Assembly: GCA_903910705.1 (NCBI GenBank)
Contig: CAIWAN010000053.1
Span: 20,917-84,916 of the forward strand
DNA length: 64,000 bases
Source of the DNA: an uncultured Candidatus Marinamargulisbacteria bacterium
GTDB lineage: Bacteria > Margulisbacteria > Riflemargulisbacteria > GWF2-35-9
Direction: 5' to 3'
Under the pieces are notes generated by a model. That model ran no database searches. It was given only the letters and a program-made list of their open reading frames with translations, and was not told where the DNA came from. The position numbers and the translations under genes were made by a program. Shown here one piece after another: positions 36,682 through 38,004 of the stretch. Numbering within the stretch: position 1 is the first letter of the stretch; every line of letters begins with the position of its first letter.

Positions 36682-38004
36682 TCATATTGTAACCTCAATA
36701 ATCTTCATCGTGTCGTTGCCGAAGATATCAATAACTTTAACAGCGATCTTGCGACGGCCTTTCTTGCATTCCATCGTTGCGCTCTTTAACTCAAGGCTAC
36801 GATCTTTCTTCGTGCGGAAGGATTGCCATTCGTTCTCAAAGACATATTCTCCCGTCCACTTCTCGTCGTCTTCGTTCGTATCCGTATTCTTGACTCGAAC
36901 GATCTCACGCTTGCTTTTAAAGTCATAGTCCACTGACCAATAATCAATCCAGTCGGTCCACTTCTTAGTAAGGACTTCTCTTGTGGTAATACCGTTCTTA
37001 TCCTTGGATATCTTGAGTATCTGCCCATTATCAACCATTATTTTACTACTGCCATTTTTTAGGGTAGCTTCGATGTGTTCCTTTGTGTCTTGGTTATAAA
37101 AAACAGAGAAATCTGTTAACTCTATGGCAATTGTATTACCTTTTATATGTGGTTTCACTTCAATGAAAGACACATCATGGAAAACGATCTGATTCTTATC
37201 GATAGCTCGCTTGTCAAAGACATCTCTAGGAATATATTTAAGAGCTAGTTCAATGCCTTTACTCTTGGCTTCTTCTTGGATATTGGGAAATAGCCCCATC
37301 TCAAACTCAAAGGCGAGTATATCAACCTTGGTGATTAACTTCTCTCTGCACTCTAAGATGATTTCTTCCACAAACAACCGAGTAACCGGCATATTGATTG
37401 GCCCAATAGCAACAAGACGATTGTTCTTCTTGCCATGAAAAACCTTGTAGCCTTGAACATTATCAGCTTTATAAGCGTGAAGGATGAGAAGCTTAAAGTC
37501 CTCTTCCTTCTGTATAAGCTGGGCTTGCTTTTCTTCGTCTCGCAGGTTCATATTCACGCCGATGTAGTGTTGACGTTCGTATTTGCCAAGGTTAAGGATT
37601 TCAAACGCTCGGAAGTCTTTACCTTTCTCCTTCATTTCACGCTGCACACCAATCATTCGTTTGCGTGTAGTATGGATGGCAAACTTACCTAAATCAGAAC
37701 CAATCCACTTGCGACCTAGCTTCTCAGCCGTTGCGAGAGTCGTCCCAGACCCACAAAAGAAATCGGCGACGATATCACCTTTATTAGAACTCGCCTTTAT
37801 GATACGTTCTAGCAACTTTTCGGGCTTTTGAGTTGGATAATTTATTCTTTCTATTGCTTGAGAGTTTACCTCATACACGTCGTCCCATATTAGCTCAACA
37901 TGTCGCTTGTCATCGAACAGCAAAAAACGGTATTTGTCAGGAAGTGGCTTGCCTTCCTCTAAGTATTTGGTAATGTCTCGGATTTCGTTATCTGTAAGTC
38001 TCAT
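36682..38004 (-). CDS. N-terminally truncated beta-class N6/N4 DNA methyltransferase module fused to a ~340-aa unknown C-terminal domain. The catalytic DPPY motif is absent.
   Basis: '[50 protein letters not shown]' (HPTQKP plus FxGxG, motif I) lies at aa 50-110. An in-frame stop sits 5 codons upstream of the ATG. No (D/N)PP(Y/F/W) anywhere in the protein. Confidence 0.6.

Follow-up and report, generated by a model that had tools for sequence, protein, structure and literature searches.

In Type III restriction-modification (R-M) systems the restriction subunit Res depends on the modification subunit Mod for target recognition, and loss of Mod silences modification and restriction together. 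Mod belongs to the beta-class N6-adenine methyltransferases (PF01555), and in the Type III proteins the conserved motifs follow the order IV-VIII, target-recognition domain (TRD), X and I-III. The same double silencing is seen in phasevarions and mod pseudogenes, with reversible frameshifting at repeat tracts as the mode of inactivation in phasevarions. EcoP15I (4ZCF) and the Mod proteins of H. pylori (6K0W) and Mbo45V (7DSU) are representatives of Type III Mod. Defence genes embedded in modification-based systems have been described in terms of 'guilt-by-embedding' (Payne et al., bioRxiv 10.1101/2024.01.29.577857), and that preprint names Hma, BREX, DISARM and Type I as the systems analysed. 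PD-T4-4, presented as a validated nuclease-NTPase defence system (PMC9519451; bioRxiv 10.1101/2025.07.10.664194), is reported to have been validated in E. coli (Vassallo et al. 2022, PMC9519451).

The locus analysed here lies in a 64-kb stretch of DNA (64,000 nucleotides, hereafter the window) and begins with a 440-aa ORF that we call mod-delta. Like the Type III Mod proteins listed above, mod-delta belongs with a family of proteins of ~730 aa, to whose members it is 68-83% identical, and it keeps the native N-terminus, the YPTQKPE block, the FxGxG motif, the C-terminal region and the position at the head of a mod-to-res operon. Unlike them, it has neither motifs IV-VIII (DPPF) nor a TRD, and its partner res is reduced to ~52 codons. 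The locus resembles the embedded-defence systems (10.1101/2024.01.29.577857) in that a co-oriented cassette, composed of an ATPase gene and a D…ExK partner gene, separates the modification gene from the restriction gene, an arrangement that is found intact in a relative (L055). The host in the window is nevertheless a Type III system, outside the set of systems that the preprint names, and it appears decayed around the cassette. In contrast to phasevarions, the inactivation of mod-delta would be irreversible, as it comprises an in-frame deletion of ~0.8-0.9 kb together with the loss of res. Overall, the locus is very probably an ordinary Type III R-M operon that has decayed and left behind a PDC-M47 / PD-T4-4-like cassette, holding no new kind of protein. 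The features of the locus and the basis on which each was delimited are collected in Table 1.

Table 1. Features delimited in the window (positions counted from its first nucleotide; P0001 is the closest full-length Mod homologue)
Feature	Coordinates	Strand	Basis
Inserted 8.2-kb island	29880..38064		Empty site in L098; GC contrast
SNF2 helicase (922 aa) and 594-aa orphan, apparently a separate two-gene module within the island	29879..34432	minus	Pair found in three distant taxa
res-prime, 72-aa ORF	34452..34670	minus	First ~52 codons correspond to the Type III Res N-terminus; remaining ~840 codons absent
Gene B, 198-aa partner (PDC-M47B)	34674..35270	minus	PADLOC
Gene A, AAA_15/AAA_21 ATPase (PDC-M47A / PD-T4-4_A)	35271..36671	minus	PADLOC, Pfam AAA_15
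mod-delta, 440-aa Type III Mod ORF with internal in-frame deletion	36682..38004	minus	120 best homologues; single alignment gap
Native codons 1-40 of mod, up to the deletion junction	37885..38004	minus	38/40 residues identical to P0001
Native 3' part of mod	36682..37884	minus	End of the variable region, YPTQKPE, motif I FFCGSGTT, conserved C-terminal region of ~330 aa

The original prediction had recognised in this ORF the SAM-binding part of a beta-class methyltransferase without its catalytic DPPY/F motif, and its account of location, motifs and partial profile match was borne out by the sequence and by Pfam. The SAM-binding motif I FxGxG is present (FFCGSGTT, residues 82-89), preceded by the (Y)PTxKP block (YPTQKPE, residues 56-62), and the Pfam profile PF01555 is matched at positions 136-218 of 221 only (E 1.1e-24). 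Likewise, the PADLOC profile MTase_III PDLC03633 is matched only at positions 290-528 of 616, so neither family profile is covered at full length. An in-frame stop does occur 5 codons 5' of the ATG, as had been reported, and the distance of 10 nt between the stop of mod-delta and the ATPase start was also correct; this spacer (AGGGAGCTGA) contains a Shine-Dalgarno-like sequence. The statement that no (D/N)PP(Y/F) occurs elsewhere in the island holds for every long ORF of the window, since a six-frame scan of the whole 64 kb with the broader pattern [DNS]PP[YFWH] detected the catalytic motif in no long ORF, its matches being confined to stop-to-stop stretches of at most 67 codons. With four full-length homologues as queries, tblastn gave no match to the missing middle of Mod anywhere in the window. 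A promoter scan 5' of mod returned no site above threshold; by eye, a TATAAT sequence accompanied by a poor −35 can be discerned 13 nt before the ATG.

The nature of the loss became apparent by comparison with homologues. A protein search covering 5.8 billion proteins yielded 8000 scored matches, and the best 120 of these, which were examined, were all 694-770 aa long and showed 68-83% identity over 88-100% of the query. Homologues of this Mod are spread over many phyla, archaea included. One full-length member (P0028) matches PF01555 at positions 1-218 of 221 and MTase_III at 21-526 of 616 (PADLOC), while the closest one, P0001, is 83% identical to mod-delta by BLASTP and 89% identical over aligned columns. 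Residues 1-40 of mod-delta align to residues 1-40 of the full-length homologues, and residues 41-440 correspond to the native C-terminal part of the family, beginning just before YPTQKPE. What separates both parts is a single missing block, ranging from 264 codons with respect to P0001 to 310 codons with respect to P0020. This block contains the conserved KGWTNKLIWGDN, IYIDPPFDVGADF (motif IV, which reads IDPPFDVG in all aligned full-length homologues) and DGSIYVHCD, as well as the entire variable target-recognition region, which in the homologues falls wholly within the alignment gap; mod-delta is accordingly devoid of a TRD. Because the N-terminal 40 and the C-terminal 400 residues find their counterparts in the same full-length proteins, on either side of a single gap, the gene is not 5'-truncated. 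To judge from these alignments, mod-delta is an in-frame internal deletion of a Type III Mod that retains the native start and the native C-terminus.

Two structural claims of the original prediction have to be abandoned in the light of these data. The upstream stop had been taken as proof of a 5' truncation, though the ATG is the native start of the family and the loss is internal and in frame; an N-terminal truncation or frameshift was thus rejected, given that the first 40 codons are native and that the missing part has left no trace in any reading frame of the window. The remainder of the ORF had been described as a fusion to an unknown 340-aa domain, which was rejected as well, as the C-terminal region is family-native and occurs in all 120 best homologues. 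Indeed, the C-terminal ~330 aa are present in every full-length member and are invariant or near-invariant at very many positions. With motifs IV-VIII and the TRD gone, the product of mod-delta would be able neither to methylate nor to recognise DNA, as expected from the established roles of those motifs.

Structural models added little beyond the methyltransferase core. The model of a full-length homologue was of low confidence (pLDDT 58.7) and built on a shallow alignment (~70-75% identity); Foldseek matched it to the Type III Mod structures 6K0W and 7DSU and to beta-class methyltransferases, in all cases through the methyltransferase core only. Further PDB sequence and Foldseek matches, namely M.BceJIV, MboIIA, RsrI and CcrM, were also restricted to the core. 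The AlphaFold (AF2) model of mod-delta itself reached a pLDDT of 54.6, with values below 50 over most of residues 30-150 and an equally shallow alignment (~70-75% identity). The fold of the C-terminal domain is therefore left unassigned, both models being of low confidence owing to the shallow alignments.

The deletion junction reads ELIW followed directly by DD, with the TGG codon at 37885-37887. At each of the two breakpoints the full-length relatives have (I/V)W with D, E or N as the next residue ('…VELVW-NGK…' and '…G-T-I-W-DDIPEVNS…'), which at the DNA level corresponds to a TGGGA microhomology as read from the homologues. An internal deletion of ~0.8-0.9 kb would thus have placed codon 40 (…VELIW) next to the last part of the target-recognition region (…W-DD-x-x-VNS…YPTQKPE), taking out motifs IV-VIII, including DPPF, and the whole TRD. 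The presence of (I/V)W-(D/E/N) or TGGGA at both ends would make a microhomology-mediated deletion, either by illegitimate recombination or by replication slippage, a likely cause of the internal loss in mod. The microhomology is deduced from homologues, as no intact allele belonging to this lineage could be recovered. When the exact proteins of the ORF and the ATPase were looked up for a direct ancestor with an intact mod, only the same deleted form came back, and a degenerate DNA scan of metagenome contigs for the junction pattern K-R-x-V-E-L-[IV]-W-D-D produced seven chance matches and no Mod relative.

The restriction gene appears to have suffered a comparable fate. In intact relatives Mod is followed by a Res of 891-903 aa (~895) with a ResIII helicase, an endonuclease domain and a PADLOC REase_III match, the Pfam domain RE_endonuc being found in the Res of L004. 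In the window, no Type III Res with an SF2 helicase and a C-terminal endonuclease follows mod. Instead, the res-prime ORF starts 3 nt past gene B, and tblastn with three Res proteins aligned it to their residues 1-48/49 at 61-65% identity (E ~1e-15), with no other Res-like sequence detected in the window by these queries. Identity to the Res of L055 amounts to 67%, and the homology stops after RRKVKDF. This L055 locus, from a gammaproteobacterial MAG, provides the intact counterpart, comprising Mod (757 aa), A, B and Res (895 aa) in the same gene order and with the same spacing as in the window. Defence-type cargo between mod and res is frequent among the relatives, the examples being a TIR protein, a DUF3800 protein with MNT/HEPN, and KilA-N. 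In L003 (5959-9675) a ThsB-like TIR protein and two small ORFs come after the P0001 Mod, with a GmrSD-family gene located upstream of it; it is another case of defence cargo attached to this Type III Mod family.

Unlike its carrier, the embedded cassette has been kept at full length. Gene A matches the PADLOC profiles PDC-M47A (E 4e-166, positions 1-459 of 461) and PD-T4-4_A (E 2e-144), both over their full length, and gene B matches PDC-M47B over positions 1-184 of 186 (E 2.4e-41) and displays a D...ExK signature (RSDYLII...LFIEIK) that was read from the sequence. The locus hence shows the full-length ATPase followed by a small partner that is expected for PDC-M47 / PD-T4-4. When 80 related ATPase loci were fetched from genomes with their flanks, B followed A in 68 of them, several of the others being short contigs that end close to A. 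For most of these cassettes (74/80) the fetched flanks contained nothing matching a methylase, and among the remaining six, three show only weak matches (26-31%) to unrelated methylases. The functional state of the surviving cassette is not certain in view of a Gly-to-Ala change at residue 32 of gene A, which turns the Walker A motif into GLNNTAKT as against GxNNxGKT in 80/80 homologues, so that the canonical GxxxxGK(T/S) is absent. Of 85 columns with a conservation of 95% or more, gene A departs from the consensus at 7, compared with a median of one among the homologues, an excess that may partly reflect divergence because the identity of gene A to the comparison set does not exceed 48%. From these changes the embedded ATPase may be impaired.

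Taken together, the data point to an operon whose original order would have been mod, the embedded two-gene ATPase/nuclease cassette, and res. Apart from the internal deletion in mod, res would have been cut in a separate event after about codon 52. Since Res depends on Mod, the loss of both genes would have been tolerated, restriction having gone together with modification, and the R-M system at this locus is presumably dead. What would have survived is the full-length cassette, the native start and 3' end of mod, and the tight 10-nt junction with its Shine-Dalgarno-like spacer. The original prediction had offered two readings of the ORF, and that of a decayed R-M remnant is upheld, in that the ORF belongs to a Type III Mod family whose relatives adjoin Res and in that res is here reduced to ~52 codons. 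From this standpoint mod-delta is a mutated copy of a well-populated and already annotated Type III methylase family and brings little new biology. For annotation purposes, the partial PF01555 match at mod-delta is misleading, as it denotes neither an active methylase nor a novel domain fusion. The locus also illustrates how an embedded defence cassette may outlive its carrier R-M system, and raises the question of whether in-frame mod remnants may be kept to maintain the expression of downstream cargo.

The window is not the only place where this Type III Mod has decayed next to a cassette that survives. In L084, a Candidatus Poriferihabitaceae MAG, a 164-aa ORF consists of Mod residues 1-44 joined in frame to the last ~120 residues, with the junction at a common NGK(S/N)K motif, and it overlaps the start of a PD-T4-4-like A/B pair by 4 nt. 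The same locus contains a Res(1-167)::Mod(C-terminal 146) chimera and, further on, a full-length Res, with no intact Mod within its 21 kb, which suggests that cassettes have been shuffled there through recombination of the conserved 3' end of mod with the conserved 5' end of res. This composite, scrambled Type III locus (9510-19540) holds in addition two MNT/HEPN pairs and another ATPase. In L076 (9727-12855), a PD-T4-4-like ATPase is immediately preceded by pieces of the Mod C-terminus broken up by frameshifts, and the partner gene was matched in two pieces ~770 bp apart and is possibly interrupted. Two of the three decayed mod genes, those of the window and L084 and not that of L076, are therefore in frame with a native start and stop. 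Such a proportion fits selection for an open leader frame that counteracts polarity on the cassette. Two independent in-frame N+C forms slightly exceed what chance predicts (1/9), which could nevertheless have produced them.

Whether mod-delta is an inert remnant or a working protein has to be weighed against its state of preservation. The 440 codons contain no stop and no frameshift, and across 161 columns without variation in 35 full-length members, only two unique substitutions (F360Y and E363K) were counted, which is within the range of such substitutions in intact members (0-4). This absence of further decay fits a very recent deletion and, equally, continued purifying selection on mod-delta. 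The ORF is most likely without an activity of its own, and its persistence might be explained by a recent date of the deletion or by an open upstream frame sparing the cassette from polarity.

Of the alternatives, that in which mod-delta has been exapted from Mod as a functional scaffold, sensor or regulator of the ATPase/nuclease cassette fares best, and we still regard it as unlikely. It could account for an intact ORF with no excess of substitutions at invariant sites and for a deletion that happens to be in frame, and it draws further weight from the independent N44+C120 derivative that lies in frame upstream of a similar cassette in L084, with the overlap of 4 nt. Embedding in modification systems can moreover be functional, as in the case of PrrC/EcoprrI cited in 10.1101/2024.01.29.577857. 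However, 74 of the 80 related loci have no match to a methylase in the fetched flanks, and three of the other six show only weak matches to unrelated methylases. The forms of the window and L084 share only their extreme ends, and half a Rossmann fold without motifs IV-VIII is unlikely to fold, in keeping with the low AF2 confidence over most of residues 30-150, itself obtained from a shallow alignment. The metagenome scan detected the junction in no Mod relative, and all 120 best of the 8000 homologues are full length. The second reading of the original prediction, namely that the SAM-binding half was re-used as a defence sensor, loses ground on the same counts of methylase-free cassettes and of the missing junction, and also because the SNF2 gene and the 594-aa gene of the island occur elsewhere as a pair on their own.

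A broader version of this proposal holds that in-frame N+C deletion forms of Mod arise repeatedly, as in the window and in L084, and are retained upstream of cassettes either as short proteins with a role, for example with the C-terminal domain as an adaptor or regulator, or as open translated leaders selected for cassette expression after the death of the R-M system. We consider it improbable. The difference in C-terminal extent between the two remnants (400 vs 120 aa) argues against a protein function common to both.

The possibility that mod-delta is one part of a split methyltransferase, assembling with a catalytic and TRD half encoded elsewhere in the genome, is very unlikely. Motif I and the reading frame have been kept, and the genome was inspected over 64 kb only; yet within the window no long ORF carries a DPPY/F-type motif and nothing matches the missing part by tblastn. 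The retention of the native N-terminal 40 aa denotes an excised internal segment, a pattern unlike that of a gene split, res has been destroyed as well, and none of the 120 best homologues is a split form.

An equally doubtful proposal is that the truncated Mod, the SNF2 helicase and the 594-aa protein form a new composite system of the DISARM or Dpd type. It has on its side the co-orientation and tight packing of the six island genes, as well as the matches of the SNF2 protein to the DpdE, ZorD and DrmD helicase profiles, which extend across the helicase core. Against it, the res fragment between the cassette and the SNF2 gene looks like a rearrangement scar rather than part of a designed operon, and no locus pairing a Mod deletion form with the SNF2 and 594-aa genes was seen. 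Furthermore, the two genes form a unit elsewhere. The 594-aa protein has no Pfam, PADLOC or NCBIfam match and only eight matches among 5.8 billion proteins, and its homologue is encoded directly after an SNF2 helicase of 912-933 aa in Cetobacterium, in a Saprospiraceae MAG and in a third contig (L100 5251-9758, L101 4141-8824 and L102 5191-9785). In these three distant taxa the pair lies among housekeeping genes, without a methylase or the ATPase cassette nearby. The SNF2 and 594-aa genes thus look like a rare conserved two-gene module that is not part of the R-M remnant. Finally, it is barely credible that an intact mod merely lost its middle through an error of assembly or sequencing, even for a metagenome-assembled contig and a family with conserved flanks around a variable middle. 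The same 5.4 kb recurs at 100% nt identity on contigs of two other ENA assembly accessions, and an identical 440-aa protein is found on a contig of a third ENA accession (at the protein level only), though these may not be independent samples; the junction, moreover, preserves the reading frame and is surrounded by unique sequence.

The decayed operon and the SNF2 module share one genomic island. Its insertion point corresponds to a 12-nt spacer between a 297-aa gene and a B12/radical-SAM gene, and in L098, a close relative from another sample with flanks of 85-93% nt identity, only 12 nt separate a 290-aa orthologue of the 297-aa gene from the radical-SAM gene behind it. This empty site identifies the intervening DNA of the window as an inserted island, whose GC content (0.36-0.43) is also lower than that of the flanks (0.45-0.50). 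Inspection of the island ends for repeats or att sites gave nothing convincing, and no integrase was seen. The radical-SAM gene is a backbone gene and lies outside the island. On the minus strand (28527-29879), it converges with a DUF4143/AAA_14 ATPase gene on the plus strand (27437-28627), also of the backbone, and the two overlap by ~100 bp; this layout is kept in the relative (L096/L098). A second strain-variable segment adjoins glyQ, where positions 39046-41894 of the window correspond to 10894-11536 of L098; the window encodes there an 841-aa protein with a weak alpha-amylase C-terminal match, and L098 an unrelated 167-aa gene on the opposite strand.
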